From: a virus | Taxonomy: Duplodnaviria > Heunggongvirae > Uroviricota > Caudoviricetes | Virus record (IMG/VR): IMGVR_UViG_2623620496_000009 | DNA length: 15,806 bases | Reading direction: 5' to 3' (one strand) | Shown here: in pieces, positions 1-15,806 of the stretch | How positions within the stretch are numbered: position 1 is the first letter of the stretch | Layout: each line of letters starts with the position of its first letter | Position numbers and translations under genes: made by a program | The notes under the pieces: generated by a model | Told to the model about the DNA's origin: nothing | The model's input: only the letters and a program-made list of their open reading frames with translations | Databases searched by the model: none

Positions 1-258
1 ATGCAAACCGTTATTTTTGGTCGTTCGGGTTGCCCTTACTGTGTGCGTGCAAAAGATCTGGCTGAGAAATTGAGCAATGAACGCGATGATTTTCAGTATC
101 AGTATGTAGATATTCGTGCGGAAGGGATCACTAAAGAAGATCTACAACAAAAGGCAGGTAAACCCGTAGAAACCGTGCCGCAGATTTTTGTCGATCAGCA
201 ACATATCGGCGGCTATACCGATTTTGCTGCATGGGTGAAAGAAAATCTGGACGCCTGA
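1..258 (+). CDS. grxA: Glutaredoxin 1
   Basis: Complete 85-aa ORF starting with ATG at position 1. CPYC active-site motif (GCPYCVRAK) and overall sequence recognised as E. coli GrxA. Confidence 0.95.
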   Translation: MQTVIFGRSGCPYCVRAKDLAEKLSNERDDFQYQYVDIRAEGITKEDLQQKAGKPVETVPQIFVDQQHIGGYTDFAAWVKENLDA

Positions 259-267
259 TCGTCTGAC

Positions 268-300
268 AAGCCCTCGCGTTGAGGGCTTTACTGATTTTTT
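268..300 (+). terminator. Putative intrinsic terminator downstream of grxA
   Basis: Inverted repeat aagccctc / gagggctt (268-275 and 281-288) with a 5-nt loop, followed by a T-run at 295-300. It overlaps the convergent ybjM stop codon. Confidence 0.5.
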
Positions 301-665
301 CTGTGCTGTGGTTTAAACAAACTACTGATAAATAAGAAACACAGTGCCCCCAGCGCACACCAGAACACCGCGCTTAGTAACCATGCCAGCTCTTGCCAGA
401 ATGAGCGCGTCGGTGAAAAAAACAGCCGCATAATGAGCATCGAACAGGGTGCCGCCAGCATTGCGCCAAACAGAGGTTTCAGGACTTCTCTACGCTGTGA
501 AAAGAAGCTGGCGACTGCTCCAGGAAGAATGAAAAATAGCAAGCCGATTTCAGGATGCCCGGCAGCCCGAAAAGCGCCTTTCATGTGCGTCGCCAGAAAA
601 AGGCACACCACAATGAAGAGGACAAAACAGCAGATTGCCCCCGCCCAACGTTGTTTATGTTTCAC
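288..665 (-). CDS. ybjM: Inner membrane protein YbjM
   Basis: 125-aa hydrophobic ORF convergent with grxA, matching the length and conserved position of E. coli ybjM between grxA and ybjL. Confidence 0.85.
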   Translation of the reverse strand: MKHKQRWAGAICCFVLFIVVCLFLATHMKGAFRAAGHPEIGLLFFILPGAVASFFSQRREVLKPLFGAMLAAPCSMLIMRLFFSPTRSFWQELAWLLSAVFWCALGALCFLFISSLFKPQHRKNQ

Positions 666-934
666 TCGTTCCTCCTGACACTGCGTCTATCGAACACATT
701 TTTCGCCAGTGTGGCGTTCAGTAAGATAAAGCCGCTTCGCATTCCATGCTAATATAGGCCAACGCAATTCATATAGCCGTTGATACCTAATGTGATTACA
801 CTAGTAAAATATATTGTTACTTTACTATCGTTTAGGTGCGCTGAATGAATCTGCGCCCTGAATTCTGGTAAAAAACATTATCGTAAATTACCATTTCTTT
901 CAACAGCTTACTAGTAAACAAGAAGTTAGCCTCC

Positions 935-2620
935 GTGAATATAAACGTCGCCGAATTGTTAAATGGGAATTACATTTTGTTATTATTTGTGGTCCTCGCG
1001 CTTGGGCTATGTCTCGGAAAGTTACGACTTGGTTCGATCCAACTGGGTAATTCCATTGGCGTTTTAGTCGTATCGCTGTTATTAGGCCAACAACATTTCA
1101 GCATTAACACCGATGCGCTTAATCTTGGCTTTATGCTGTTTATTTTCTGCGTCGGGGTCGAAGCCGGACCGAACTTTTTTTCCATTTTTTTTCGCGATGG
1201 GAAAAATTACCTAATGTTAGCACTGGTGATGGTTGGCAGTGCGCTGGTGATCGCCTTAGGGTTAGGTAAGCTGTTTGGCTGGGATATTGGCCTGACGGCC
1301 GGTATGTTAGCAGGCTCTATGACGTCGACACCGGTTCTGGTCGGTGCTGGCGATACACTGCGTCATTCCGGCATGGAAAGCAGGCAGCTCTCACTGGCAC
1401 TGGATAATCTGAGCCTCGGGTATGCCTTAACCTATTTAATCGGTCTGGTGAGTTTGATTGTTGGTGCGCGTTACTTGCCGAAATTGCAGCATCAGGACTT
1501 ACAGACCAGCGCCCAGCAAATCGCCCGCGAACGTGGCCTGGACACTGATGCCAACCGTAAGGTTTATTTACCGGTGATCCGCGCCTATCGCGTCGGCCCG
1601 GAGCTGGTGGCCTGGACCGACGGCAAAAATCTGCGTGAACTGGGTATTTATCGACAAACCGGCTGCTACATTGAACGTATTCGACGTAACGGGATTCTGG
1701 CAAATCCAGACGGTGATGCCGTGCTACAAATGGGCGATGAAATAGCGTTGGTAGGCTATCCCGACGCCCATGCCCGACTCGATCCCAGCTTCCGTAACGG
1801 TAAAGAAGTTTTCGATCGTGACCTTCTCGACATGCGTATCGTCACTGAAGAAGTGGTCGTTAAAAACCATAACGCTGTAGGTAAACGTCTCGCACAACTG
1901 AAGTTGACCGATCACGGTTGCTTCCTTAACCGCGTCATTCGTAGCCAGATTGAGATGCCGATAGATGACAACGTCGTGCTTAACAAAGGTGACGTTTTAC
2001 AAGTCAGCGGTGATGCCCGTCGCGTAAAAACCATCGCCGATCGCATCGGCTTTATCTCGATTCACAGCCAGGTCACTGACCTGCTGGCATTTTGCGCCTT
2101 CTTTGTTATTGGGCTGATGATCGGGATGATCACCTTCCAGTTCAGCACATTCAGTTTCGGCATGGGGAACGCTGCCGGGTTGTTATTCGCCGGAATTATG
2201 CTGGGCTTTATGCGTGCTAACCACCCGACCTTCGGTTACATTCCGCAAGGTGCATTAAGCATGGTGAAAGAGTTCGGCTTGATGGTGTTTATGGCAGGCG
2301 TTGGTCTGAGCGCCGGTAGCGGTATTAATAACGGCCTGGGCGCGATTGGCGGTCAGATGTTGATTGCCGGATTAATTGTCAGTCTTGTGCCCGTGGTTAT
2401 CTGTTTCTTGTTCGGTGCTTATGTATTGCGAATGAACCGCGCACTGTTGTTCGGCGCAATGATGGGCGCACGCACCTGCGCGCCGGCAATGGAGATCATC
2501 AGTGATACAGCTCGCAGTAACATCCCTGCGCTGGGCTATGCGGGCACCTACGCAATCGCCAACGTCCTGCTGACGCTGGCAGGGACAATCATCGTCATGG
2601 TATGGCCAGGATTAGGATAA
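935..2620 (+). CDS. ybjL: Putative AAE-family transporter YbjL
   Basis: 561-aa ORF with a GTG start at 935. Hydrophobic N- and C-terminal halves flank a soluble central region, and the N-terminus [25 protein letters not shown] is recognised as E. coli YbjL. Confidence 0.9.
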
Positions 2621-2732
2621 AACTGAAGTTGCCCTGAAAATGAAATTTTTTTGCACAACCGCAGAACTTTTCCGCAGGGCATCAGTCTTAATTAATGCCA
2701 CTGCTTTTCTTTGATGTCCCCATTTTGTGGAG

Positions 2733-2775
2733 CCCATCAACCCCGCCATTTCGGTTCAAGGTTGATGGGTTTTTT
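2733..2775 (+). terminator. Rho-independent terminator-like hairpin in the ybjL / prophage-end spacer
   Basis: Perfect 10-bp inverted repeat cccatcaacc (2733-2742) / ggttgatggg (2760-2769) with a 17-nt loop, immediately followed by tttttt (2770-2775). Confidence 0.55.
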
Positions 2776-2855
2776 GTTGCCTAAAATTTATTCTATTTAA
2801 AATCATGAGGTTAGAAGCACTGTTTTTTAACGATGGCGACAAAATGGCGGCAGCG

Positions 2856-3074
2856 TCAAAGAGAGAGCGCCACCTGTCCTGATTTCATTGGATGCGGCTG
2901 AACCGGATTTGACTCTTTTGGCGTTGCAATCGAACGAACAAAAGTTTCATGGGTAACAAAAGTATGGCTGCAGTTAATATTCTGGCACTGGTTGTAACGC
3001 TCTTTGGTCAATGAAGATACCTGAAAACTGCTGCGAGTATGGGCGGCACTTCCACACAGTGGGCAAATCATCAT
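2856..3074 (-). CDS. ogr: Late-gene transcriptional activator Ogr/Delta family (zinc finger)
   Basis: 72-aa product from the ATG at 3072-3074, MMICPLCGSAAH...YNQCQNINCSHTF, with the Cys-X2-Cys ... Cys-X4-Cys arrangement and strong resemblance to P2 Ogr. The six-frame ORF extends to a GTG at 3107, but the ATG is preceded by a GGGGAG Shine-Dalgarno-like sequence. Confidence 0.85.
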   Translation of the reverse strand: MMICPLCGSAAHTRSSFQVSSLTKERYNQCQNINCSHTFVTHETFVRSIATPKESNPVQPHPMKSGQVALSL

Positions 3075-3111
3075 TTTTCGAGTTCTCCCCATTTTTGCTA
3101 AATTCACAATA

Positions 3112-3139
3112 ATGATACCGCATTATTCCATTTTGCAAA
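3112..3139 (-). promoter_or_regulatory. Candidate sigma70 promoter for ogr
   Basis: On the minus strand, TTTGCA (forward 3134-3139), a 16-bp spacer, then TATCAT (forward 3112-3117), about 35 nt upstream of the ogr ATG. Confidence 0.4.
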
Positions 3140-3164
3140 CTTAAAAGTTCTCCATTGCGAAGAA

Positions 3165-4265
3165 TCATTCCATTTCGAAATCATCAATCCTCACTTCAAG
3201 CTCCAGACTGGTCGTAAAACCGTTATCCGGGCTGACGGTATGCGTCAGAGTCGTAATGGTCCATTCCGCATCATCTATCGGCTGTTTAAAGCCACTGACT
3301 TTCACTGGCATTTCCGTGTAGAGATCTGCCCGACCTTCCGCCAGTTGTAGCGAGAATGACGCAACGCCGCGTTGCAGGCGTTCCCACTGCATTTTCGCCG
3401 CTCGTTCGGCGTTGCTCCGGTTGGCATAAGTGCGATTAAGTACCAGCACGTTTTCATCCGTACCCACCAGGTAATCGCCCTGCTTCGCTTCCGGCTCTTT
3501 CTTCTGCTTCTTAGTCCTGCGCTTACGCTTCACCGTGGTGCTTTCTTTCTTCGAGGGTTCGCGAGTATGCAACCAGCTGGCAATTACGCCCGTGTAAGCT
3601 CCGCGATCTGCCAGGGTAAAGCGGTGACTGTCGCCGTCCTTACGTGTGATAGTGATCACCGGCAGTGGTTTACCGCTGGCACTTTTACCCTGTCCCTGTC
3701 GGATGAATAACAGATTGCCATTTTTCACTGACGCGATAGCACCGTACTGGCGCGCCAGCCGCATCAGAAAACTGCCGTCACTCTCATTAGTCTGGTCTAT
3801 ATGTTCCACGGGCTTATCCGACAGGTCATTACCCAGTGCCATCTTCAGCTTGTGACGCGCGGCTATTTCCTTGACCACTTCCCCGACAGTGGTCTTGTGC
3901 CACGACTTTTCACGGCGGGTATTCAGCGTTTCACGAAAATCAGCACTTCGCGCCCGGATAGTCAGGCGGTCCGGTGCGCCAGTGTGTTCAATCTCGTCCA
4001 CCGTGAATGCCCCTTTCGGGAAAAGCGGCTGCCCCTTCCAGCCCAGCGCCAGCGTAATGACCGCACCACGGCGCGGCAGCGCTATTTTTCCATCGGCGTC
4101 GTCCAGCTCCAGATCAAGCTGGTCCGCTTCAAAGCCCCGGTTATCCGTCAGCGTCAGCCTCATCAGGCGGTTATCCAGCACAGTGGTGATATCCCTGCCC
4201 TCAATACTGATGCTGAATGCGGGAGTTTTGTTGCCTTTGTTAAGCAGTTCAGAGCTGAAATTCAC
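3165..4265 (-). CDS. D: Tail protein D (late control gene D family)
   Basis: 366-aa ORF recognised as a P2 gpD homolog. Its start overlaps the U stop by 4 bp. Confidence 0.9.
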   Translation of the reverse strand: MNFSSELLNKGNKTPAFSISIEGRDITTVLDNRLMRLTLTDNRGFEADQLDLELDDADGKIALPRRGAVITLALGWKGQPLFPKGAFTVDEIEHTGAPDRLTIRARSADFRETLNTRREKSWHKTTVGEVVKEIAARHKLKMALGNDLSDKPVEHIDQTNESDGSFLMRLARQYGAIASVKNGNLLFIRQGQGKSASGKPLPVITITRKDGDSHRFTLADRGAYTGVIASWLHTREPSKKESTTVKRKRRTKKQKKEPEAKQGDYLVGTDENVLVLNRTYANRSNAERAAKMQWERLQRGVASFSLQLAEGRADLYTEMPVKVSGFKQPIDDAEWTITTLTHTVSPDNGFTTSLELEVRIDDFEME

Positions 4266-4747
4266 GACAGCAGCCCTCCCACCGTTTTACTGATATCACT
4301 TAAGGCAGATGTTGCCGTGTCCTGCAGATTATTCAGTTGCGTACTGAGATCACCGAACATATCGGACAGGGATTCATCCACCCGTTTGAGCGACAGGGTG
4401 AACTCAATCCGCCGCGGCATACCGTCGCGGAAAAACTCCGTTTTAGTCAGATTCAGTCCCTCAATCACATACATGCCGTAAATCGTGCCGCTGCCTTCAA
4501 TCAGGGGCCATGCTTTTCCCTGTTCTGCCATCTGCTCCAGAGCCAGCAACGACAGCCTGCCGCCCGTTATCTCCGGCATAAGAACACCAGAAAGCGTCAG
4601 CATGTCGTTGTCCGGTCCCAGAAACTGCGTGGACGGACGACGGTTTACCCGGCTGTTTGCCGCATGTCGCCAGCTGCGTTGATACTGCAGTTCCTGATAC
4701 GGAACGGTGCGCAGCATAAACACGTACAATCCCAGCACCATCATCAT
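4262..4747 (-). CDS. U: Tail protein U (tail terminator)
   Basis: 161-aa ORF, P2 gpU-like in size and position. Its start overlaps the T stop by 4 bp. Confidence 0.85.
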   Translation of the reverse strand: MMMVLGLYVFMLRTVPYQELQYQRSWRHAANSRVNRRPSTQFLGPDNDMLTLSGVLMPEITGGRLSLLALEQMAEQGKAWPLIEGSGTIYGMYVIEGLNLTKTEFFRDGMPRRIEFTLSLKRVDESLSDMFGDLSTQLNNLQDTATSALSDISKTVGGLLS

Positions 4748-7700
4748 GCGTCGTATCCCCCCTGATCGCTGTAGTTACTCCTGGCTTTTGCCTTCAGCCT
4801 GCGTTCACGTTCATCAAGCTGGCGTGCCACCTCCCGCGCAATATCCTGCGCACTTTGTCCTGGCTGCATCTGAATGATGATCTGCGTCGGTGCCTCAATC
4901 CTGTAAACGGGCGGCACAGTGGCTGCACGACTCACCATCGCTTCGCCGCCTTTCGCGGGAAGTGCCAAAGGATGCAACGGTGGAAGCTCTGCAGGCGCGG
5001 CAGCAACGCCCATCATTCCGGCAACAACGGCAGCCAGTGCAGCTGTATTTCTCCGGCTGGTCACATTTGCCGGGCCGTTAACAATTTCCGGCCCGTTTTC
5101 ACCGACGATGCCAAACTGCCCGCGCGGGATATAGCCGCCGCTGTCATACATCCCCGCAAAGCCATATCCCCATGACGGAAAACCACCCGATGGCATCATC
5201 ACTTTACCGTTTGTATTCACCGTCGCAGGTTGCTGACGCGTCACACTTTCCGGTAGTTTCGCCTTTGCGGCCTCTTTACTGACAACGCCGAGTTTCTCCA
5301 GCAACCAGGAAACGCCGGATTTCAGGGAGTCCAGCGGATGCATGACCATATTCAGCCCTTCCGCCAGTGCCTCCCCGAATCGCCGCCCCATTGCCGCTGC
5401 ACTCTGCAGTTCGGCAGAGGTTGACTTAACGGGCGTCAGCAGATCAGTAAACCAGCCCCACAGCGCCTGTACTTTGTCGCCAATCCACTGGAACACGGGC
5501 TTAAGCGGTTCGAATGCTGCACTGACGGGACCTGCCGCCGCTTTGAATCCTTCCACCACGCCACCAAGAAATGCGGTGATGGGTTGCCAGTATTTCCAGA
5601 CAACCAGCGCCACGCCCGCCAGTGCAGTAACCACAAGACCTATCGGACTGAGCAGAGCACCTAACAGACCAGATACGGCATACAGGGCAACGCGCAGCAT
5701 CGCCAGTGGACCAGATGCCAGTACTCGCAGCACCGTGCCTGCGGCGGCCAGTCCACCACGCAGTACCGCCAGAGGATTCATAAACATCACAGCAACAGCA
5801 CGTAAACCGGATAATCCAGACCGCAAAAGTGCAACCGGCGCACCTGCTACAGTTTTCAGGACATTTCCCGTCAGTGATGCCGTGCGGCGCAAAGACGACA
5901 ACGGCGCAGTAAGTAAACCCGCAGCGTGGCCCGATGAAGCAAGCCCGCGTCGCAGCAGTGCCAGTGGTGCGCCAGCCAGCCAGGACAACGCGCTGCTGGT
6001 TCGAGTTACTGCTGCCGTAACGGAAGGTAACGTTTTGATACCCAGCACAGAGAACCCCAGACGGATCACTGCCAGCGGCCCCAGCACTGCAGCTAACACC
6101 ACCGCTAAGGTGCCGAGGCCCACGGTAACCGCAGCCACAACAGCCGCCGCTTTCATCAGTGTGCCCGTCAGTTCCGGGTTAGCTTCCACCCAGCGACGCA
6201 ACGCCCCCGTGACGCTTTTCACCGTGAACAGAATATCCATCAGCGGCTGGCGCAGCGTTTCGCCCAGGCTGCTGAAGGTGTTCTGCGCTCCGGTTTTGAC
6301 CAGCAACCACTGAGCAGAAAGTGAGTCTTTGTTGATGTCGGATTCTTTCTGCATGGAGCCGAGCGCATCATTGCCCGCTGTCAGTTTTAGCTGGCGCTGC
6401 AGTTCCGGCAGGTTGTTTGCCAGTTTCGCCGCGTCATCGCCAAACTCTTTACCAAACAACATGGTCATGGCAGACAGGCGCTTATCCTGCGGCAGCGCGT
6501 TCACCTTCTCCAGCACGCGCTGGATGGTTCCCATCGCATCCTTCGTCATCTGCTTTTCAATCACTTCAGGATTGAGTTTCAGCAGATTCATCCCTTCAAA
6601 GAAACTCTTGCTCTGCATGGTGGCAATGGACAATTCACGCACCATCGCGTTTGCTGCACTGGCTGCAACCTCTGGCGCAGCGCCCAGTGTCAGGAAGGTG
6701 GAACCCAGCGCCGCCGCTTTACGATAATCCAGACGATCAGCCACACCGCCCAGGCGTTGCATGACATCAATGATGTCTGCCCCTTTCGACATGGCGTTAT
6801 CATCCAGATAGTTCAGCGCATCACCGAGCTGTTCAATATTGCGGGTAGGGATTTTGTAGAGCTGGGCGATTTTCCCCAGACTTTCTGACAGTTCATCCGC
6901 TGGCAGCTCAAAGGCTGTTGCCGCCTTTGCTGCCGTACTGGCGAAGGCCAGCAGGTCACGTTTCTGGTCCTCCCAGCTGTCGTCAGGGTTTGCAACGTTC
7001 ATACGCGCACCACCTTCAACCAGTGCAGCGAAGTCCACCGCACCGTTTTCCATCGGCAACTGTTCGCTGGCAGCTTTGATGGCATCCTGCATTTCATAAA
7101 AACGTGCAGTGCGGTTGCCATTATCGTCACGCAGACCATTGACCTGCTTTGCCACACCTTTCATGGCATCTTCCATGCTGGTATAGCTTTTTACTGCCGC
7201 CATCACTGGCGTCCCCATTGCCAGCCCTGCCGCCGTGGTGGTGGCTCCGGTTCCTGCGATGCGATCGCGCACCTCCAGCGAACGGGCATAACTGGCACGC
7301 GCTGCATTCATCCTGCGCTGAGCTTCCCCCAGTCGCTTCAGCCGCGCCTCCTGTTTCGACAGTTCCTGGTTATAACGTGATGTTTCACGGGCTAAACGGG
7401 CAGTTGCTCCCGCATCATCTTTCGCAGAAATTCCCGCCCGGTACAGTTCTGCACGCACAAGCGCCGTTTGCTTCTGCAAATATTTTTGTTGTTCTTCCAG
7501 GCGTTGGACTGCCAGTGTTTGCCGACCTAAAGCCACAAGGTGCCGTTGTGATGGTTGTTCCATCGCTTCCAGCTCAGAACTAAGCAAATTTGCCTTCTGT
7601 CTGGCATAGTTCAGCCTGTCGCCTAACTTTTTGTTATCGGCCTGCAGCTTGCGAAATTTTTCCAGGCTGTTACCCGCCTGATTGAGTTGCTTTAATGCGT

Positions 7701-7821
7701 CACGGGAGTTTCTGATTGCGCCAGCCAGCTCTTTCGAACTGGCCTGTGCAGCACGGAATGGGCGGGTGAGTTTGTCAACCGCATTAAGAATGACCTGCAG
7801 GCGCAGGTTATTATCACTCAT
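4744..7821 (-). CDS. T: Tail tape measure protein
   Basis: 1025-aa ORF with a coiled-coil-like N-terminal region, a central Ala/Leu/Gly-rich hydrophobic repeat region (PLAxLRxGL-like motifs) and a C-terminal domain; P2 gpT-like position after E/E'. Confidence 0.9.
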   Translation of the reverse strand: MSDNNLRLQVILNAVDKLTRPFRAAQASSKELAGAIRNSRDALKQLNQAGNSLEKFRKLQADNKKLGDRLNYARQKANLLSSELEAMEQPSQRHLVALGRQTLAVQRLEEQQKYLQKQTALVRAELYRAGISAKDDAGATARLARETSRYNQELSKQEARLKRLGEAQRRMNAARASYARSLEVRDRIAGTGATTTAAGLAMGTPVMAAVKSYTSMEDAMKGVAKQVNGLRDDNGNRTARFYEMQDAIKAASEQLPMENGAVDFAALVEGGARMNVANPDDSWEDQKRDLLAFASTAAKAATAFELPADELSESLGKIAQLYKIPTRNIEQLGDALNYLDDNAMSKGADIIDVMQRLGGVADRLDYRKAAALGSTFLTLGAAPEVAASAANAMVRELSIATMQSKSFFEGMNLLKLNPEVIEKQMTKDAMGTIQRVLEKVNALPQDKRLSAMTMLFGKEFGDDAAKLANNLPELQRQLKLTAGNDALGSMQKESDINKDSLSAQWLLVKTGAQNTFSSLGETLRQPLMDILFTVKSVTGALRRWVEANPELTGTLMKAAAVVAAVTVGLGTLAVVLAAVLGPLAVIRLGFSVLGIKTLPSVTAAVTRTSSALSWLAGAPLALLRRGLASSGHAAGLLTAPLSSLRRTASLTGNVLKTVAGAPVALLRSGLSGLRAVAVMFMNPLAVLRGGLAAAGTVLRVLASGPLAMLRVALYAVSGLLGALLSPIGLVVTALAGVALVVWKYWQPITAFLGGVVEGFKAAAGPVSAAFEPLKPVFQWIGDKVQALWGWFTDLLTPVKSTSAELQSAAAMGRRFGEALAEGLNMVMHPLDSLKSGVSWLLEKLGVVSKEAAKAKLPESVTRQQPATVNTNGKVMMPSGGFPSWGYGFAGMYDSGGYIPRGQFGIVGENGPEIVNGPANVTSRRNTAALAAVVAGMMGVAAAPAELPPLHPLALPAKGGEAMVSRAATVPPVYRIEAPTQIIIQMQPGQSAQDIAREVARQLDERERRLKAKARSNYSDQGGYDA

Positions 7822-8250
7822 CGTTAGCCCCGCTTCTCTGAATCGCTTTATACCGCCATTCCAGCACTTCGGTCAGCGGCATAACGTCAGTAACGGATGG
7901 CGGCCAGTGAAAGATGGTGGCGATATCAGCCACCAGATCGTCAACCGTCAGGCTGTCGGTAAACCGGCAAGCACCGACTTCTTCAACAAAAAAGTGACAA
8001 CCTCAACCGACATAGCGGTGAGATCTGCCGGGTCCATCTCTGCAATTTCCTGTGCAGTCAGTGCCGGGCTGGAGATGCGGGGGATCACGGTCATCATCGC
8101 GTTCACATCCATATCCATAATGGCCTGCAGGCGTGTACCGCGCAGTGCACCAGACTGCGGTTTACGCAGCACAATTTCGGTGATTTCCGTTTTACCGCGC
8201 TTGATAGGGGTATCCAGTTGAATAGTCTTTTCAGTCTGCTTATCGCTCAT
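7814..8250 (-). CDS. E+E': E+E' tail assembly chaperone made by a programmed -1 frameshift (about 145 aa)
   Basis: Slippery site TTTTTTG on the minus strand (forward 7987-7993). The -1 frame stays open for about 57 codons (VEEVGACRFTDS...AIQRSGANDE) to a TGA at 7814-7816 that overlaps the T start codon (ATGAGTGA). The predicted size is close to the P2 E+E' product as recalled. Confidence 0.6.
7948..8250 (-). CDS. E: Tail assembly chaperone E
   Basis: 100-aa ORF directly upstream of T, with a T6G slippery heptamer 12 codons before its stop; P2 gpE-like. Confidence 0.85.
   Translation of the reverse strand: MSDKQTEKTIQLDTPIKRGKTEITEIVLRKPQSGALRGTRLQAIMDMDVNAMMTVIPRISSPALTAQEIAEMDPADLTAMSVEVVTFLLKKSVLAGLPTA
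7987..7993 (-). other. Programmed -1 ribosomal frameshift slippery heptamer (U UUU UUG)
   Basis: Forward caaaaaa is TTTTTTG on the coding strand, aligned X XXY YYZ in the E reading frame. Confidence 0.6.
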
Positions 8251-8304
8251 TTTGTTGTCCTGTAAATTGGGTTCTGGCGCGGAATCCCGCGCCGTTCAGA
8301 TACA

Positions 8305-8820
8305 TCAGAGGCCGAGGGCGTTGCGGTGCGCTTCCATCAGGTCCACACCGTCCACAATTTCCACCATGTTGATAAGGTCCACTTCATAGAGCACCTCACC
8401 ATTGATAGTCAGCTTCGCGTAGCTGTTGGTACTGGTCACTTTGGTGGTGTTGCTTTCGCCCGTCTTCCACTCACCGGAATCCACTTCTTTGTGACGTCCG
8501 CGCACCACAAGCTCCACGGCCTGCACTTCCCCGGTATCGTCACGCTGGATAGAGCCGGTAAAGCGCAACTGGATACCATCCACCGTGGCTTTGCCCATCT
8601 GCTTAAACAGCAGCAGTTCAGTACCACCAATGGAAAATTCCGTATCCAGTGCGCCGTCATCCAGCCCCAGATCAACATCCACTGCACCCGGCATTCCGCC
8701 GCCGCGATACTTCTCATATTTGCGGGTGAATTTCGGCAGCGTCAGCGACTCAACGATCCCCTGCCAGTTGTTCCCGTCATTAAACAGGTTCAGGTGTTTT
8801 AATTTGCGTGGTAAAGCCAT
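8305..8820 (-). CDS. FII: Tail tube protein FII
   Basis: 171-aa ORF recognised as a P2 gpFII homolog, 9 bp downstream of FI. Confidence 0.9.
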   Translation of the reverse strand: MALPRKLKHLNLFNDGNNWQGIVESLTLPKFTRKYEKYRGGGMPGAVDVDLGLDDGALDTEFSIGGTELLLFKQMGKATVDGIQLRFTGSIQRDDTGEVQAVELVVRGRHKEVDSGEWKTGESNTTKVTSTNSYAKLTINGEVLYEVDLINMVEIVDGVDLMEAHRNALGL

Positions 8821-8829
8821 GTTGTCCCC

Positions 8830-10002
8830 TTACGCGCTGACCTGGCTGGAGAAATTCACCAGGTACTGATCGGTGATGCGCTGACGCAGCATCAGGTTTT
8901 CAAGTGGCGGCACTGGTGTGTAGTCGTAGTCGATGGTGAGTTTTCCAGCTTTCAGAGTGTCTTTGTCGTTCACCGACTCATCCAGCCAGCAATCGCCACC
9001 AATGAGATAGCCCTGACTGATCAGGCTGCGCATTTTGGCGCGGATACCTTCGATAATGTCGCGGGCCAGCGACGGATTCAGCGGTTTGTCGACAGCCCAC
9101 ATTGGCGCTTCTGCCATCGTGTCCATCAGCACCTGCGCCGTGCGGGTGTTGTTTTCGAAGGCAAAGAGTGGGTCATCACTCAGACAGCGGGAACCCCAGA
9201 AGCGAAAGCCGTCTTTGCGGATAAGTGTGGTAACATCGTTCTGGTTAAGCAGTCCCGCATCAGTTGCCGGGTCCTGCAGATCCCAGAACACATCAGCAGA
9301 AATTCCAGTGACACCGTTCACGCCCACGTTGGACAGGCTTTTGTGCCACCCTGTCTGCTCATCAATTTTGGCACGCAGACCAAGCGCACGGGCGGTGGCA
9401 TATGCCGTTGCGTCGGCATTCAGCACCGTGTCCCAACCAGTAAAGTCAGGCCAAATCAGCATCCCTTCACGCTGACTGAAGTTTTCACGGTAAGTGATCG
9501 CCTCCTGCACCGTCTTGCAGCCATACGCTGACAGGTAAGCAAACCCACGCAGGCTTTGCGCCACGCCCAGCAACTCAGTAGCAACGGCTTTATTATCGTG
9601 CCCCGGCACGCCGAGGATGCGCGGTTTAACACCGAGCTGTGACTGGGCAGATAACAGGGCTTTCATACCAGTTTTTTTACCTTCAGCAGTCACTGCGCCG
9701 ATGATATTGGTCGTGGTTTCTTCTTCCGTTTCACCCTGCGGCACACGCACAACAACGGTCACGGGTTTTGCCTGGTCAGCGATGGCATCCAGCGAGCGGG
9801 CCAGCGTACCGGATTCACCCGCCTTACCGCTGGCAGTAAGCACATCAGTGATTAGCACGGGTTTATTAAGAGGGAACATTTTTGCATCGGCATCATCGCC
9901 CGTGCAGACCATGCCCACGATGGCGGTGCTCACCGTGGTAATGGATCGAGTGCCTTCGTTGACTTCAACAACGCGCACTCCGTGGTGGTAATCCTGAGCC
10001 AT
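8830..10002 (-). CDS. FI: Contractile tail sheath protein FI
   Basis: 390-aa ORF with strong resemblance to P2 gpFI ([19 protein letters not shown]..., [13 protein letters not shown]). An AGGAGG Shine-Dalgarno sequence lies 9 nt upstream of the ATG. Confidence 0.95.
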
Positions 10003-10078
10003 AGTGGCGAACCTCCTGATTGGATTAGGCTTCGCCCTATGTTGAAGTGATTGTGTCTGACAAGCAGCTAAGCGCAGT

Positions 10079-10096
10079 TGTACCGTTATTCACACA
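10079..10096 (-). promoter_or_regulatory. Candidate Ogr-type activator site (TGT-N12-ACA) of a PF-like late promoter
   Basis: TGTaccgttattcacACA lies in the 106-bp spacer between the tail fibre assembly gene and FI, centred about 85 bp upstream of the FI ATG. No convincing -10 hexamer was found by eye. Confidence 0.35.
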
Positions 10097-10108
10097 AAAT
10101 GACGGTAT

Positions 10109-10522
10109 TTATCTGCTTGCAGGGAAAACAGGCCAAATAATATCAGGTGCGGTGCTGGTATCTGTTGCCGTCACAGCCTCGATATAATCCAGCACAACGT
10201 TAAGTCGGGTAGTTTCCTCTTGCGTCAGTTTGCGCCCGGCCTGCAGCTTTAACTGAATCACGCTGATATTGACCATTGCTGCGTCTATCAACGACTGTTT
10301 TTTCTGTTCAGCGTCAGCTACCAGTTCATCATGAGAACGTTCCGGAGTGGGTGGTGCAGTAAATACCCCGTCTGAATACGCCCAGCCGATTCCGGGCTGC
10401 TCACTGATATCAGAAATATTAATGAGCTGCAGATTATCCGGCACAGTGAATTCATCCTCGCCATCCCAGACAATGACATTCACAACCATCCCATTTTCAA
10501 TAACTGCATATGACGCATTCAT
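10109..10522 (-). CDS. G: Tail fibre assembly protein (Caudovirales Tfa family), in the P2 G position
   Basis: 137-aa product from the ATG at 10520-10522, preceded by GAGGAG. The C-terminus ...DTSTAPDIIWPVFP is the characteristic Tfa ending. The start overlaps the H stop (TAATG). The six-frame ORF extends 8 codons further to a TTG. Confidence 0.85.
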   Translation of the reverse strand: MNASYAVIENGMVVNVIVWDGEDEFTVPDNLQLINISDISEQPGIGWAYSDGVFTAPPTPERSHDELVADAEQKKQSLIDAAMVNISVIQLKLQAGRKLTQEETTRLNVVLDYIEAVTATDTSTAPDIIWPVFPASR

Positions 10523-12441
10523 TATGCAAACTCCTCGATAATACAAACCCCATCAGCACCTTTCCCGCCCGTCATACTGGTTCCGCTATAACCTGCATCG
10601 TATGCACCACCTCCGCCTGAACCAAATGCCCTGCCTCTAACGCCACCGCCAGCGCCTGCGCGTCCACCGCCACCCCAGTACGATGTTCCGCCTTCACCGC
10701 TGACGCCGATATTTCCGGACTGACCGTCGCCTCCATCTCCACCAGTGATGCGGATATCGCCAGTACTCGGCACACCTCCGTTACCGCCGTTTGTGTTTGT
10801 AACACCCACTTTCCCGCCACCTTCGCCACCAGGAGCAATTAACGATGCGAATACGCTATTCCCGCCCCTGGTGCCGTTCGTTGCACTAACACCACCGGCC
10901 CCACCTGCGCCGATAGTGACTGGATAACTATTCTGTGTCGGGGTCATTATTGAAATTATTGTTCCACCGGCCCCACCGCCAGCACCGAAAAACGTTTCAT
11001 TATTGGATGTAGCCTTGCAGCCGCCCCCTCCGCCACCGCCGCCCGTTATTGTGACCCTGATCCGTTTTGTTTCTGGTGATGGGGTATACGTACCTGATGA
11101 CGCGAAAGCCCGGGTACTCAGCCGGCGTCCCACGTATCCGCTTGTATCTCCCAAACCAAGATAACGAATAACCTCCTGTTTGCTTGTTTTAGCCAGAATA
11201 TCCCGTCCAACATTAGTCAGGGTTGTCAGGCTGGCTGTATCATTCCCCGTAAAATACGGTAGTTTGTCTGCCGCAGTGGCAAGGCCTGCCAGTGCGGTCA
11301 GTGTGGCGTCGGCAGGTTGTTTTCCATTGGCAAGGTCATATACAGCCTTCACAGCTTTTGGTGTGGCAGCCTGCGTTTCTGACGTGCTGTTAGTGGCGCT
11401 GCTGAGTTGCACGGTACCTTTTACCGTCAGTGAAGCTGCAGGCACATCCGTTATCTGGCTCCACGGGTGCGTGTGACTGACAGGTGCCTTACCTGCTGCA
11501 AGGTCATATGCCGCCTTCACTGCCTTTGGTGTGGCAGCCTGCGTTTCTGACGTGCTGTTAGTGGCGCTGCTGAGTTGCACGGTGCCTTTTACCGTCAGTG
11601 AAGCTGCAGGCACATCCGTTATCTGATTCCACGGGTGTGTGTGACTGACAGGTGCCTTACCTGCTGCAAGGTCATATACAGCCTTCACTGCCTTTGGAGT
11701 GGCAGCCTGCGTTTCTGATGTGCTGTTAGTGGCGCTGCTGAGTTGCACGGTGCCTTTTACCGTCAGCGAGGCTGCAGGTACACCTGTTATCTGATTCCAC
11801 GGGTGTGTGTGACTGGCGGATGCTTTACCTGCTGCAAGATCATATGCAGCCTTCACAGCCTTCGGTGTTGCGGCCAGTATTTCGGATTCACTGTTGGTCG
11901 CACTGCTTAACTGAGTAAAACCTTTTGCGGTCAGCGAGGCGTCCGGGTGACGTCGTGACTGTTCGTGCTCTGATATTTTGTCATCCACATACTTGCGGGT
12001 TGCCAGCACTACAGCAGGGTCGATTTTCAGGATGATATTGTCCGTACTGCTGGTAATCAGCACCATGCGCACGGTCTGGGTACGCCCACTGCCTTCAGCC
12101 AGTTGCGGCTTATAGCTTTCCGGGCAGTTACCCACGGCAATCAATGCCCCGGACTCATCAAACAAGCCCACTTCACGTATCCACCAACCGCCCTCGTTTT
12201 CAGGGATCACCTGTTCAGCAATAATCTGGCTGCTGTTCTGCGGGTCGATATAAAGCATATTCAGCGCAGCCCGGCGTTTCTCATTTACCAGTGCCGTCTG
12301 CTTTGCGTCCGGCGTTGGCAATACTCCGCCGCCATCGCCCACCGCCATATGGGTAATTTTTAGCGGCACACCGAGCGCGGCGGCGCTGGCAAGTTTCGCC
12401 GCGCCAATATCCGTCAGCAGGGTATAAAATTTTGTGCTCAT
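10522..12441 (-). CDS. H: Tail fibre protein (P2 gpH-like N-terminus, Phage_fiber_2-type repeats, Gly-rich C-terminal domain)
   Basis: 639-aa ORF. The N-terminal ~165 aa resemble the P2 H baseplate-attachment region. It is followed by four tandem ~56-aa repeats (LSSATNSTSETQAATPKAVKA...HTHPWNQIT) and a glycine-rich C-terminal third. Confidence 0.9.
   Translation of the reverse strand: MSTKFYTLLTDIGAAKLASAAALGVPLKITHMAVGDGGGVLPTPDAKQTALVNEKRRAALNMLYIDPQNSSQIIAEQVIPENEGGWWIREVGLFDESGALIAVGNCPESYKPQLAEGSGRTQTVRMVLITSSTDNIILKIDPAVVLATRKYVDDKISEHEQSRRHPDASLTAKGFTQLSSATNSESEILAATPKAVKAAYDLAAGKASASHTHPWNQITGVPAASLTVKGTVQLSSATNSTSETQAATPKAVKAVYDLAAGKAPVSHTHPWNQITDVPAASLTVKGTVQLSSATNSTSETQAATPKAVKAAYDLAAGKAPVSHTHPWSQITDVPAASLTVKGTVQLSSATNSTSETQAATPKAVKAVYDLANGKQPADATLTALAGLATAADKLPYFTGNDTASLTTLTNVGRDILAKTSKQEVIRYLGLGDTSGYVGRRLSTRAFASSGTYTPSPETKRIRVTITGGGGGGGGCKATSNNETFFGAGGGAGGTIISIMTPTQNSYPVTIGAGGAGGVSATNGTRGGNSVFASLIAPGGEGGGKVGVTNTNGGNGGVPSTGDIRITGGDGGDGQSGNIGVSGEGGTSYWGGGGRAGAGGGVRGRAFGSGGGGAYDAGYSGTSMTGGKGADGVCIIEEFA
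11326..11940 (-). repeat. Tandem 168-bp in-frame coding repeats in the tail fibre gene (three full copies plus one partial)
   Basis: Near-identical DNA units, e.g. gccttcac[a/t]gc[t/c]tttgg[t/a]gtggcagcctgcgtttctga[c/t]gtgctgttagtggcgctgctgagttgcacggt, recurring about every 168 bp. Confidence 0.85.
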
Positions 12442-13043
12442 GGATTCACTCTCATTGTGTCAATAACATGGACCGCCCCGCCTTCATGCGCGGTGCCACC
12501 GGAAATAATCGTTTCGTTGATATACGGATAGATCGTGATTTCTTCGCCAAGATAGCTGGCGGCTCCCACCCAATGCGGGCCGCTGGTCTGCAGATTGATG
12601 GACATGCCGATCATGTGGCGGCTACATGGTTTGGCATCGCTTATCAGTCGCTCAAGTTCCAGATAGGTATCTTCAGTGATACCCTGGTCCTGCACGCCGA
12701 TATCCAGGCGAAACGTGCCCGGTGCCTCTCCGGTCTGCCACCACTCAATAATGCGGATCAGAAAGCCGAACGGCTCCACCACCCGCCGCACGGCACTGGT
12801 GGTCCCTTTATGCTGATGAATATAAAAAGCATCCTTCACCACCTGGCGCTTGACGCTTTCTGTCCAGCCCTCGTCCCAGCGATCTACAGAGAACGCCCAG
12901 GCGAGATAAGGCAGGAAACTGACCGGACAGGTTGCCGGATTCCACAAGTCACGAAGCGGCACCTGCAGATCAGAAATCCCGCTGCAGGTTTGCGCCAGTC
13001 GGCGCTCCAGTGGTGTTGAACCCGGTGGCAGCAGACTATTCAT
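12438..13043 (-). CDS. I: Baseplate protein I
   Basis: 201-aa ORF recognised as a P2 gpI homolog (conserved LWNPATCP...LPYLAWAFSVDRWDE). Its start overlaps the J stop by 8 bp. Confidence 0.85.
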   Translation of the reverse strand: MNSLLPPGSTPLERRLAQTCSGISDLQVPLRDLWNPATCPVSFLPYLAWAFSVDRWDEGWTESVKRQVVKDAFYIHQHKGTTSAVRRVVEPFGFLIRIIEWWQTGEAPGTFRLDIGVQDQGITEDTYLELERLISDAKPCSRHMIGMSINLQTSGPHWVGAASYLGEEITIYPYINETIISGGTAHEGGAVHVIDTMRVNP

Positions 13044-13944
13044 CCGTTCCTCCGTTGGTTACGCTCCACTGCGTACATGATGCCGCCTGTGTTTTGTTCA
13101 GGACCACATCCTCCAGAGGAGAAGCCAGCTCCACACGCTGCACACCCTCAACATGCAGGGCGGCAAAGATGGCGCTACGGCGAATATCCCGACCAAGACG
13201 CGTCTGACTGGCGATGTACTTCTGCAGGCTGGCTTTTGCCGCTGCCATTACCGGCTCTGCTTCCGGTCCAGGATAGAGAAAAATGGTGGCTTCCACGCGA
13301 TACGGGATGATTTCTGCGCTGCGAACCGTAAGACGGTCAGCCACCGGGCGGACGTTCTCACTGTTCAGAGCTTTTTCCACCACGTCCAGCAGGTCTTTTT
13401 CTGCAGTTCCGTCGCCTTCGCGGCTAAGGACAGTCAGCACCACCTCTGCAGGTGCCGGGCTGGTTGCACTGGCATCCGCCACCCGACCGTCGGCGCTTCG
13501 GGCATGAAATTCATAAGCTGCAGTTGGCCCCGCAACTGAAAGCCCTTCAAAGGCTGCAGGCACACGCAGGCGTAACGCTTCATCGCTTTCCATCACAGCT
13601 GCAACGGGCGGCACAGCGTCATTATCAGCAGGCGTCACCGTCAGGCGTTTCACGTTGTAGTTGGCAGCGAGCTGGTCAAGATCGCTGCCCATCGCGTAAG
13701 CCACCATCACAGCCTGCGCGGCTTCGTTAATGCGCTGGCGCAGAAGCAACTCACGGTAAGCGTTCTCCTGCAGCAATTTGGTGACGGGTTCAGATTCCAG
13801 TTCCAGCGTGCGGATCACTGCTTCCTGCTCATCTTTCGGATGAAGCGCAACAAATCCGGCCTTGCGTTCGGCAAGCAGCGTCTCAAAGTCCGGCACATCC
13901 ACAATCTGCGGCGCAGGCAACTGCGAAAGGTCAATCACTGCCAT
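13036..13944 (-). CDS. J: Baseplate protein J
   Basis: 302-aa product from the ATG at 13942-13944 (MAVIDLSQLP...), preceded by AGGAG. This matches the P2 gpJ length as recalled. The six-frame ORF extends 13 codons further upstream. Confidence 0.9.
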   Translation of the reverse strand: MAVIDLSQLPAPQIVDVPDFETLLAERKAGFVALHPKDEQEAVIRTLELESEPVTKLLQENAYRELLLRQRINEAAQAVMVAYAMGSDLDQLAANYNVKRLTVTPADNDAVPPVAAVMESDEALRLRVPAAFEGLSVAGPTAAYEFHARSADGRVADASATSPAPAEVVLTVLSREGDGTAEKDLLDVVEKALNSENVRPVADRLTVRSAEIIPYRVEATIFLYPGPEAEPVMAAAKASLQKYIASQTRLGRDIRRSAIFAALHVEGVQRVELASPLEDVVLNKTQAASCTQWSVTNGGTDE

Positions 13945-14290
13945 TCTCTGCTCCTGTTGATACTGAAAGGGACACAGGCACACCGTTATTCCGCCGCCCG
14001 GTCAGCTCCACCACCATTGAACCGTCAAAATTGCTGTTAATAGTGATGGAATCCAGCGTCAGCCGTGGCTCCCAGCGACTCAGTGCCACATACACAGCCG
14101 ACATAACCTGCAGGCGTAACGCCGGATTTTGTGGCTGATCTATCAGTGCCGACAGCAGGGAACCATATTCCCGACGGGCAATGCGGCTACCCTGCGGCGT
14201 CAGCAGAATGTCCCGCACCGACTGGCGCAGATGGTCAATATCAGTAATGGCTTTACCGTTGGTATTGTTCATCCCGCTATAAAGCGTCAT
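13931..14290 (-). CDS. W: Baseplate wedge protein W (GPW/gp25 family)
   Basis: 119-aa ORF, P2 gpW-like. Its ATG overlaps the V stop (ATGA). Confidence 0.85.
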   Translation of the reverse strand: MTLYSGMNNTNGKAITDIDHLRQSVRDILLTPQGSRIARREYGSLLSALIDQPQNPALRLQVMSAVYVALSRWEPRLTLDSITINSNFDGSMVVELTGRRNNGVPVSLSVSTGAENGSD

Positions 14291-14865
14291 ACCGGGCCTC
14301 CGGTTGTGTCGCCGCCTTTCAGGACGCCAGTATGCTGATGCGCATCAACCACGATCCCGTTAGAACTCATTGCTCCGCCACCCTGGGTAACGCCACCATT
14401 GATCACCACTTCGCTGTTAATGCGCGTGCGGTCAGCCTCCAGTACAAACTCACTGGTTTTCATGGTGATGTTGTCAGCGGCCTCAATGACCATTGATTTG
14501 ATGCCCCTGACATACCAGCGCCCGGTGGCGGGTTCATATTCAAACCAGCCACCGTCCGGGTATTCCGTCACGTTGCCGTCCTCAGAGCCTGAAGGTGGCG
14601 GAAACTGGTTTGAGTAGACCGCAGGCAGGGCAAACGCGGTTTCCAGATTGCCGCCAAGGCTGAACAGCACAACCTGCTCACCCACAGACGGTTTCCACCA
14701 GGTGCGCGATTTGCCCGCGCGCAGTGTCAGCCAGTTAATCCAGTTGGTTTCGAGGTCGCCAGTTTTCACCCGACACAGCCAGTTTGCCCTGTCCACTTCG
14801 GTGACTACACCTGTGCGGATCAGGTTGGTGATAAGGCGCATGATTTCGGTTAATTGTGCGTTCAT
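14287..14865 (-). CDS. V: Baseplate spike/hub assembly protein V
   Basis: 192-aa ORF, P2 gpV-like (MNAQLTEIMRLITNLIRTGVVTEVD...). It is the first gene of the V-W-J-I-H-G block. Confidence 0.9.
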   Translation of the reverse strand: MNAQLTEIMRLITNLIRTGVVTEVDRANWLCRVKTGDLETNWINWLTLRAGKSRTWWKPSVGEQVVLFSLGGNLETAFALPAVYSNQFPPPSGSEDGNVTEYPDGGWFEYEPATGRWYVRGIKSMVIEAADNITMKTSEFVLEADRTRINSEVVINGGVTQGGGAMSSNGIVVDAHQHTGVLKGGDTTGGPV

Positions 14866-14911
14866 AGGGAAAGGTTGCCATCAATAGCAAGCAGTAGACA
14901 GCCTTTGTAAT

Positions 14912-14929
14912 TGTATTAGACATAGAACA
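14912..14929 (-). promoter_or_regulatory. Possible Ogr-type dyad (TGT-N12-ACA) upstream of V
   Basis: TGTattagacatagaACA is centred about 55 bp upstream of the V ATG. That spacing is unusual if the dyad sits near -55 from the transcription start, so this may be a chance match. Confidence 0.25.
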
Positions 14930-15085
14930 AATGCCTTTCAATGGTCTGCGTTAGAGCATTAATACGTTGCAAAAGGTCGAATGACGTTGCGCAAGTTAAG
15001 AAGTTCAATGCTCTTAAAAAAGCACTTGAAAGCAACGCCTTTAATTATTAAAAGCCAATTAATTTAGGCGGTTACTATGTTATCT

Positions 15086-15114
15086 TTGACACAAAAGATG
15101 TTTATTGACAATAT
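15086..15114 (+). promoter_or_regulatory. Candidate sigma70 promoter for the DUF262 gene
   Basis: TTGACA (15086-15091), a 17-bp spacer, then CAATAT (15109-15114). A second TTGACA lies at 15105-15110. An AAGGAG Shine-Dalgarno sequence at 15131-15136 sits 7 nt before the ATG. Confidence 0.35.
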
Positions 15115-15143
15115 ATAAGTTCAATCTAACAAGGAGAAAAATT

Positions 15144-15806
15144 ATGCCAAATGAAAATCTTGATATTGACTCAAGGACTACCGAGCAATTATACGAATGG
15201 TATTTGCAAGGAAATTTGATAGTCAATAGACGTTATCAAAGGAAACTTGTATGGTCTCTAGAAGAAAAGACTTCTTTAATATCTTCTATGCTGCAACAAT
15301 ATCCTATTCCGTTATTATTATTTGTTACCATCAATGAACAAAGAGAAATATTGGATGGAATGCAAAGATTAGAAGCAATTATGAGCTTCATCGAACAGAG
15401 ATTTTCATTAGATGGACAATATTTTGATTTGGACTCTATAGCTTTAACAAAACAACTTAAAGATAATGGAACTTTAATTCAGAAAGAACCAATCCTTTCC
15501 CGTGATTCTTCAGCAATTATTGCACGTTATCGATTTGCAATATCAGAATATAGCTCCACAAATGAAAATATTGACGAAGTATTCAGACGAATAAACTCAA
15601 ACGGGAAGATTTTATCCAAACAAGAATTACGTAGTGCAGGAACAGTTAGTAACTTCTCTGAACTGGTCAGATCGATATCAACATCGATCAGAGGTGATAC
15701 TAGCCATTCTGACATTATGAATCTCGGTAATGACTCCAACTTACTGATAGTGTTTTATGTTCAGATAATGCCCGATGACTTTGTCATGCAGCTCCACCGA
15801 TTTTGA
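15144..15806 (+). CDS. DUF262 / ParB-like nuclease-superfamily protein (GmrSD N-terminal-type domain), 220 aa
   Basis: ATG at 15144 with a strong RBS. Motifs read directly from the translation: YQRKLVW, QQYPIP, ILDGMQRL (DGQQR-like), and FRRINSNGKILSKQELRSA (the second DUF262 signature). The gene is AT-rich and divergent from the phage V operon. Its stop codon is the last three bases of the window. Confidence 0.7.
   Translation: MPNENLDIDSRTTEQLYEWYLQGNLIVNRRYQRKLVWSLEEKTSLISSMLQQYPIPLLLFVTINEQREILDGMQRLEAIMSFIEQRFSLDGQYFDLDSIALTKQLKDNGTLIQKEPILSRDSSAIIARYRFAISEYSSTNENIDEVFRRINSNGKILSKQELRSAGTVSNFSELVRSISTSIRGDTSHSDIMNLGNDSNLLIVFYVQIMPDDFVMQLHRF

Follow-up and report, generated by a model that had tools for sequence, protein, structure and literature searches.

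A P2/186-like prophage attachment site at the 3′ end of the small RNA gene rybB

Here, we examined the boundary between host and phage DNA in a stretch of 15,806 nucleotides (hereafter, the window) in which host genes adjoin late genes of a P2-like phage. Positions 2621–2855 very probably constitute the attR of a ~33.3-kb P2/186-like (Peduoviridae) prophage that inserted, through tyrosine-integrase recombination, into the 3′ end of rybB, between the convergent genes ybjL and rcdA. A sequence-only reading of the same DNA had assigned both attR and the phage/host boundary to this interval, with ogr as the last prophage gene; alignments and flanking genes agree with that assignment, and the boundary is now placed to within 14 bp (2765–2778). 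As a discovery, the rybB junction matters little; its value lies in the corrected annotation, whereby the supposedly empty spacer becomes a stress-response small RNA (sRNA) gene and the hairpin that it contains becomes the terminator of that gene.

Gene content and position of the phage/host boundary

The features of the window on which the argument rests are the following, in order of position.

1–258: grxA, host gene at the start of the window
Minus strand: ybjM, host gene
935–2620, plus strand: ybjL, aspartate:alanine antiporter family (Pfam Asp-Al_Ex and TrkA_C; RefSeq annotation in identical genomes), host gene upstream of the junction
2663–2690, plus strand: predicted sigma-E-type promoter of rybB, with −35 element AGAACTTTT at 2663–2671, −10 element GTCTTA at 2685–2690 and +1 at G2697 (prediction from sequence only)
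2697–2775, plus strand: rybB, complete and intact gene for the Hfq-dependent, sigma-E-controlled sRNA RybB of ~79 nt (Rfam RF00110; identity to K-12)
2731–2775, plus strand: intrinsic (rho-independent) terminator of rybB, with a 12-bp stem (2731–2742/2760–2771) and U6 at 2770–2775 (Rfam consensus structure; ViennaRNA)
2765–2778, no strand: att core ATGGGTTTTTTGTT (14 nt), common to attR, attL, attB and attP
2779–2791, no strand: extended, imperfect core and first phage-derived DNA, phage allele GCCTAAAATTTAT versus ATCTAAAAYTTAT in the E. coli attB
2801–2813, plus strand: putative IHF-like site AATCATGAGGTTA in the ogr-proximal arm (pattern WATCAWNNNNTTR; conserved offset)
2834–2852, plus strand: candidate arm-type integrase site, tandem octamers TGGCGACA-AAA-TGGCGGCA (TGGCGRCA pair; rarity and conserved offset)
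2856–3074, minus strand: ogr, late-gene activator with an Ogr/Delta zinc finger (Pfam PF04606, E = 7e-22; RefSeq CDS of 72 aa), last gene at this prophage end

Beyond ogr, the window continues with leftward-reading P2 genes, including D, U and the tape measure gene (Pfam Phage_GPD, P2_GpU and tape measure), and the P2 right-end gene order ogr, D, U, T, E/E+E′, FII, FI is present (Pfam; RefSeq annotation of identical DNA). Positions 1–15725 are 100% identical to several complete genomes, such as that of EC-JS426, and comparison with the corresponding locus of CFSAN064035 (L002) yields 128 mismatches, all located beyond 15645, where IS1 insertions differ. No open reading frame (ORF) of at least 50 aa is found in 2621–2855, where only chance ORFs of 22–45 aa occur; thus, the earlier description of the stretch as ORF-free holds at this threshold, but the spacer is not empty, given that the complete rybB gene lies within it.

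The breakpoint was located by base-by-base comparison of the window with the attB of K-12 and of WEC (a strain free of the phage, with 99.5% identity along the aligned ybjL–rybB stretch), the attL of seven lysogens, and the int-to-ogr junction of KP12. Prophage-free genomes align to the window up to ~2795, and unambiguous identity stops at 2778; the megablast alignment extends to 2795 because weak similarity, which runs to ~2791, continues beyond the core. The core itself consists of ATGGG (the last five bases of the terminator stem, in the descending arm), TTTTTT (the U-tract) and GTT. It is present once in the empty site of K-12 and WEC and recurs at the attL of EC-JS426, 813R9, CFSAN064036, Z1323CEC0014 and SA53-3. 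In KP12, a Klebsiella phage contig (L004), int ends at 6053, the core occupies 6128–6141 and ogr starts at 6219, all contiguous, which is the structure of an attP, and the arms match the attR arm of the window and the attL arm; KP12 is recorded as a “partial sequence” clone whose provenance is uncertain, but its int–core–ogr contiguity is exactly as expected of attP. To the left of the core, attR and attB carry rybB sequence (..GGTTCAAGGTTG), and attL and attP carry phage sequence (..CCCGTTTACATAA). To the right, attR and attP carry phage sequence (GYCTRAAATTTAT.., then AAAATCATGAKGTTAGAAGC..), and attL and attB carry host sequence (ATCTAAAAYTTATCTACTACC.., with the rcdA stop codon 17 nt on). 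Thus, the flanks swap as expected for B-O-P and P-O-B arrangements around a common block, which places the strand exchange inside 2765–2778. The perfect identity of the phage core with the E. coli attB amounts to 14 bp, 11 of which lie inside the RybB transcript.

The other prophage end lies outside the 15.8-kb window; for attL and int, we relied on public genomes that match window positions 1–15725 exactly. In EC-JS426, the second core is located 33,309 bp from the first, where it directly follows int and a 240-aa ORF and shortly precedes rcdA, and the DNA between the two cores encodes a complete 186-like P2-family set (int, cI, cII, fil, replication, dam, portal, terminase, capsid, lysis and tail genes). 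The int/rcdA end in the strain from which the window comes is expected to read ATGGGTTTTTTGTT followed by ATCTAAAAYTTATCTAC. The two comparisons that the sequence-only reading had proposed, namely, alignment with a prophage-free genome and a search of the other prophage end for a matching direct repeat, have therefore both been carried out, the former providing an empty-site reference with the boundary at the core and the latter the second copy of the core.

A 601-nt probe spanning the K-12 site was compared with 5423 complete E. coli genomes. The site is empty, with ybjL, rybB and rcdA uninterrupted, in 4294 of these (79%), and in the remaining ~21% the probe is split exactly at the core; a ybjL–rybB–ogr junction like that of the window is found in 1115 genomes. 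Arms of this prophage type also adjoin rybB in Enterobacter, Shimwellia, Silvania, Serratia and an Enterobacteriaceae genome. For the survey of other species, contigs were searched with the pattern GGGTTTTTTGTTGYCTRAAATT, which was abandoned as a marker of attR, given that it matches the native post-rybB sequence in many Enterobacteriaceae and, by chance, sequences in unrelated taxa; lysogens of other species were counted only where the arm motif was present as well. Several loci display further arrangements. A few genomes have variant prophages at the rybB core, among them E. coli 2c3 (L005, 6766–7700), which carries a different P2-like prophage whose arm is divergent and in which an additional hypothetical ORF of 120 aa separates the arm-type site from ogr. 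In Serratia fonticola (NZ_JAVGCU010000011.1; L087, L046), a second junction on the same contig consists of an int-side arm, the core and an ogr-side arm; this attP-like structure implies what would be tandem prophages at rybB. In Enterobacteriaceae bacterium RIT714 (L031, L043), a degenerate IHF-like site and an arm-like motif occur on the host side of attL, which suggests that they might be remnants of a decayed earlier arm.

Immediately past the core, 2779–2780 read GC in attR and AT in attL and attB. In other Enterobacteriaceae, GCCTGAAATT is native after rybB, and in many of them the native post-rybB sequence is GTTGCCTGAAATT, the same as the phage allele, so that the identity between attP and attB is longer there, at least 22 nt. 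The E. coli attB (GTTATCTAAAA) is a diverged target with 14 perfect bases only, yet about one-fifth of the sequenced strains are lysogenic. The rybB stem of Serratia fonticola is different, and the match to the phage arm starts there only at ACGGG; if homologous integrases cut at equivalent positions, the cleavage or overlap region probably lies within GGGTTTTTTGTT (2767–2778). Two of the seven attL copies, those of CFSAN064035 (L002, 37921–37934) and 22AR0322 (L009, 2501–2514), have the core ATGGTTTTTTTGTT, with a single G-to-T change, and may be impaired for excision. Narrowing of the crossover to TTTTTTGTT on the basis of the CFSAN064035 change was considered and dropped: the IS-free copy in EC-JS426 has G at this position, which identifies the change as a late mutation.

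The rybB gene at the junction

The Rfam model RF00110 matches the plus strand at 2700–2778 along its entire length (model positions 1–79 of 79; 105.3 bits against a gathering score of 40, E = 3e-21). The mapped RybB 5′ end, GCCACUGC, sets the gene from G2697 to the end of the U-tract at 2775, and the sequence through 2778 is identical to that of K-12. In K-12 (L001), rybB occupies 3701–3779, between ybjL (ending at 3621) and rcdA (ending at 3796), in line with its published location in the ybjK(rcdA)–ybjL spacer (Papenfort 2006, PMC1804206); in the window, the left flank is as in K-12, with ybjL on the same strand. Each lysogen locus contains a single rybB copy, at the ogr end, and none at the int end (Rfam). 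Across the whole window, ARAGORN detects no tRNA or tmRNA gene and the Rfam scan yields nothing above threshold except RybB, so that the core overlaps no tRNA or tmRNA gene. Hence, the earlier observation that no tRNA-like structure is present, and that the target is not a tRNA gene, was correct. The further proposal of integration at an intergenic or protein-gene-adjacent site was not, given that the core includes the 3′-terminal bases of an RNA gene.

Upstream of the gene, AGAACTTTT and GTCTTA, separated by 13 nt, end 6 nt before G2697. By comparison with the sigma-E consensus GGAACTTTT/GTCAAA and the described rybB promoter (Papenfort 2006, PMC1804206), 2663–2690 was assigned as a putative sigma-E-type promoter of rybB. 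Between 2615 and the end of the core, the window differs from K-12 and WEC at one position only, 2695, which is A in the window and G in both references, corresponding to position −2 of the rybB promoter.

Folding of the 82-nt RNA with ViennaRNA gives −25.2 kcal/mol (z = −3.3), a value that none of 200 shuffled sequences equaled. The hairpin and T-run previously noted at 2733–2775, and suggested to be possibly the native ybjL terminator or a part of the junction, are indeed native host sequence and at the same time a part of the junction, because the descending arm and the U-tract supply 11 of the 14 core bases; however, they belong to the rybB terminator rather than to a dedicated terminator of ybjL. 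A simple terminator scan of 2500–3200 made no call and is uninformative on this point, because its loop limit of 3–8 nt excludes the branched 17-nt loop of rybB.

Phage arms, integrase and cargo

From the core to the ogr stop codon, the phage arm spans 77 nt; it contains two motifs that keep their offsets in 2c3, KP12, Enterobacter, Shimwellia, Silvania, Serratia and an Enterobacteriaceae genome while the rest of the arms diverges. The pattern WATCAWNNNNTTR begins 22 nt past the end of the core in the window, in the KP12 attP and in the otherwise divergent arm of 2c3, and at +21/22 in the arms of other genera. Taken by itself, the IHF consensus does not reach significance in the window (3 matches against 0.94 expected), and the site is retained as a candidate only because its offset is conserved. 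The TGGCGRCA pair has exactly 2 matches in the 42-kb locus (0.01 expected), the second of which, at the int end, extends into the 3′ terminus of int and lies 95 nt upstream of the core. The pair invariably stands at +55 from the end of the core in arms of E. coli, a Klebsiella phage, Enterobacter, Shimwellia, Silvania and Serratia (the scan of other genera, in which counting begins one base later, gives this offset as +54). P2 attP, in which the core and arm Int sites are accompanied by IHF and Cox sites (PMC3936717 and the P2 literature), serves as the model from which IHF and Int roles are read from the conserved offsets, and we infer on this analogy that AATCATGAGGTTA and TGGCGACAAAATGGCGGCA are, respectively, predicted IHF and arm-type Int sites. 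The geometry of core, IHF-like site and TGGCGRCA pair is a usable signature for rybB prophages across Enterobacteriaceae, and the arm motifs are candidate sites for characterization of this integrase. In the int-proximal arm, outside the window (L002, 37866–37901), two tandem 18-nt repeats of AAYCTAACTTATTGTTTT (reverse complement AAACAATAAGTTA) are located between the int-side arm site and the core; these could be excisionase (Apl/Cox-type) or IHF sites.

The integrase encoded next to attL is a tyrosine recombinase with the domains Int_N (PF24624) and Phage_integrase (PF00589). It shows 35% identity to P2 Int and 98–99% identity to the integrases of E. coli phage 813R9 and a set of Klebsiella phages, and the EC-JS426 copy keeps the full catalytic-domain match. 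In this lineage, int is 343 aa long and is followed by the 240-aa ORF (L002, 36083–37847; L009; L131, 20068–21832; L007, 1021–2380), which ends in sequence that is int C-terminal coding sequence or the arm-type site in other phages. This ORF has no Pfam match, and PADLOC returned only weak HEPN-like matches (E ~0.005). Z1323CEC0014 has a different, 89-aa ORF in its place, and in 813R9, KP12 and SA53-3 no ORF follows int, which is 350 aa long. The position between int and attP thus looks like a cargo slot.

Other variable elements occur elsewhere in the prophage. A GmrSD-type (DUF262, PF03235) restriction/defense cargo gene, located at 15144–15806 between the baseplate V gene and the tail-completion genes, is cut in the window at 15725/15726 by an IS1 end (GGTAATGACTCCAACTTACTGAT...); it is intact in EC-JS426 (591 aa), and the IS1 of CFSAN064035 is inserted elsewhere, after 15645. 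CFSAN064035 further carries ISKox3 between cI and int. The tail-fiber gene (10522–12441, minus strand) contains three overlapping 259-nt direct repeats at ~11313–11907 (L002, 11050–11644), spaced by 168 nt and 84–100% identical, which correspond to a 56-aa tandem repeat in the fiber shaft.

Interpretation and known systems

The junction is most readily understood as the product of standard heterobivalent recombination by a tyrosine integrase, the partners being attP and an attB overlapping the 3′ terminus of a conserved RNA gene. The phage attP duplicates the final bases of the rybB terminator (ATGGG, TTTTTT and GTT), and recombination within the 14-bp identity leaves rybB complete on the ybjL side, from its predicted sigma-E promoter and seed region to the terminator stem and the U-tract. 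Beyond the U-tract, the phage arm takes the place of the host DNA, although the GTT that follows is unchanged too, and the second copy of the core, at the int/rcdA end, is attL. Under this scheme, rybB is rebuilt intact at attR because attP carries the same terminal terminator bases, and RybB expression is likely to be unchanged in the lysogen. By analogy, the rybB insertion can be regarded as the sRNA equivalent of integration into a tRNA gene.

The earlier reading had itself named the outcome that would speak against an attachment site, namely, an ancient, fixed phage remnant downstream of ybjL. Such ogr-only P2 remnants do exist elsewhere, as in the case of the K-12 “ogr-D′” at the cyaR site listed in Table 2 of PMC3032704. 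Here, however, the site is empty in 79% of the complete genomes, the prophage is of full length, carries int and has the matching core at its other end, and near-identical integrases and an attP are found in phage records, including a phage contig, so that a fixed remnant can be considered extremely improbable, practically to the point of dismissal. A subtler objection is that the phage recognizes the ybjL/rcdA intergenic DNA as such, the overlap with rybB being incidental and the hairpin only a terminator of ybjL (and rcdA). Indeed, no more than 11 nt of the core fall inside RybB, the extended core at 2779–2791 lies outside the gene, the rybB hairpin may also stop read-through from ybjL, and the stretch from the ybjL stop codon to rybB yielded no further terminator-like site (by the scan with the 3–8 nt loop limit, which is blind to the rybB hairpin). 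Yet the prophage arm abuts rybB in all the other genera listed above, the identity always takes in the last stem bases of the terminator together with the U-tract, and the literature names rybB as the target in the relevant passages of PMC10121019, PMC4048246 and PMC3032704. Moreover, integrases recognize DNA, so that a landing pad at the 3′ end of an RNA gene and a target defined by DNA sequence only are mechanistically the same. We consider the incidental overlap quite unlikely.

More weight should be given to the possibility that the junction is real but the prophage is now immobile, with 2765–2778 representing a dead att site. The window copy has the IS1 end at 15726 inside the cargo gene, the CFSAN064035 copy combines IS1 and ISKox3 insertions with the G-to-T change in its attL core, and the integrase is 343 rather than 350 aa long, the 240-aa ORF being inserted before the arm site. 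By contrast, the IS-free EC-JS426 copy has intact cores and a full integrase catalytic-domain match, and the IS1 of the window interrupts a GmrSD-type cargo gene rather than an essential phage gene. Loss of mobility therefore seems doubtful, although far from negligible, and attR of a P2/186-like prophage at the rybB 3′ end remains our preferred reading.

The resulting arrangement has one potential regulatory corollary. In the lysogen, rybB and ogr are convergent and 80 nt apart, a geometry in which read-through of the terminator of envelope-stress-induced RybB might yield an RNA antisense to ogr, or phage transcription might disturb the RybB 3′ end. We regard this as a highly speculative suggestion that is very probably wrong; if true, the interference would couple the host envelope-stress response to late-gene control of the prophage and could explain why the site is favored.

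Both the kind of junction and the site are already known, rybB being a published integration hotspot of P2-like phages in E. coli and Klebsiella. P2-like prophages denoted Rybb*W, Rybb*B (the carrier of retron Ec86) and Rybb*Cr are listed at the “rybB ncRNA” of E. coli W, B and Crooks (Archer 2011, PMC3032704), a Klebsiella prophage is described as lying “precisely within the gene for RybB” (Hudson 2014, PMC4048246), and hotspot #29, within rybB in 109 E. coli genomes, is reported to be occupied by Felsduovirus-type phages only (Hochhauser 2023, PMC10121019); sRNA genes have been shown to be integration targets (Bobay 2013, PMC3603311, cited by PMC10121019). In the passages of PMC3032704, PMC4048246 and PMC10121019 that name the rybB site, the 14-bp core and the arm motifs are not given. 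The window prophage shares with the known rybB prophages (Rybb*W/B/Cr, Kpn38RybB of Klebsiella pneumoniae and the occupants of defense hotspot #29) the ybjL–rybB/rcdA site, the phage type, and the orientation, with ogr adjoining rybB and int adjoining rcdA, in a site occupied in about one-fifth of complete E. coli genomes. Nothing essential differs, its own cargo being the IS1-interrupted GmrSD-type gene and, in the identical genomes, the 240-aa ORF.

The rybB case is directly analogous to P2 at cyaR/ryeE and to integration at tRNA 3′ ends. Phage P2 at locH by cyaR (ryeE) and the ryeB/SdsR locus of Salmonella likewise combine a P2-family tyrosine integrase, an sRNA 3′ end with a terminator hairpin and ogr at the junction (Table 2 of PMC3032704; PMC3603311). 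In the present case, by contrast, another sRNA and another core sequence are involved, identity of the integrase to P2 Int is only 35%, and the candidate motif TGGCGRCA is specific to the rybB group. Integration at the 3′ ends of tRNA and tmRNA genes (P4-like elements at leuX, ssrA; Williams 2002, as cited in PMC10121019) shares with the rybB junction the principle that the attP copy rebuilds the RNA gene, and, like those targets, rybB is a conserved, single-copy, hairpin-containing RNA gene. Unlike them, however, rybB encodes an Hfq-dependent regulatory sRNA, and the duplicated part is its terminator end, comprising 11 nt of transcript, much shorter than typical tRNA cores.
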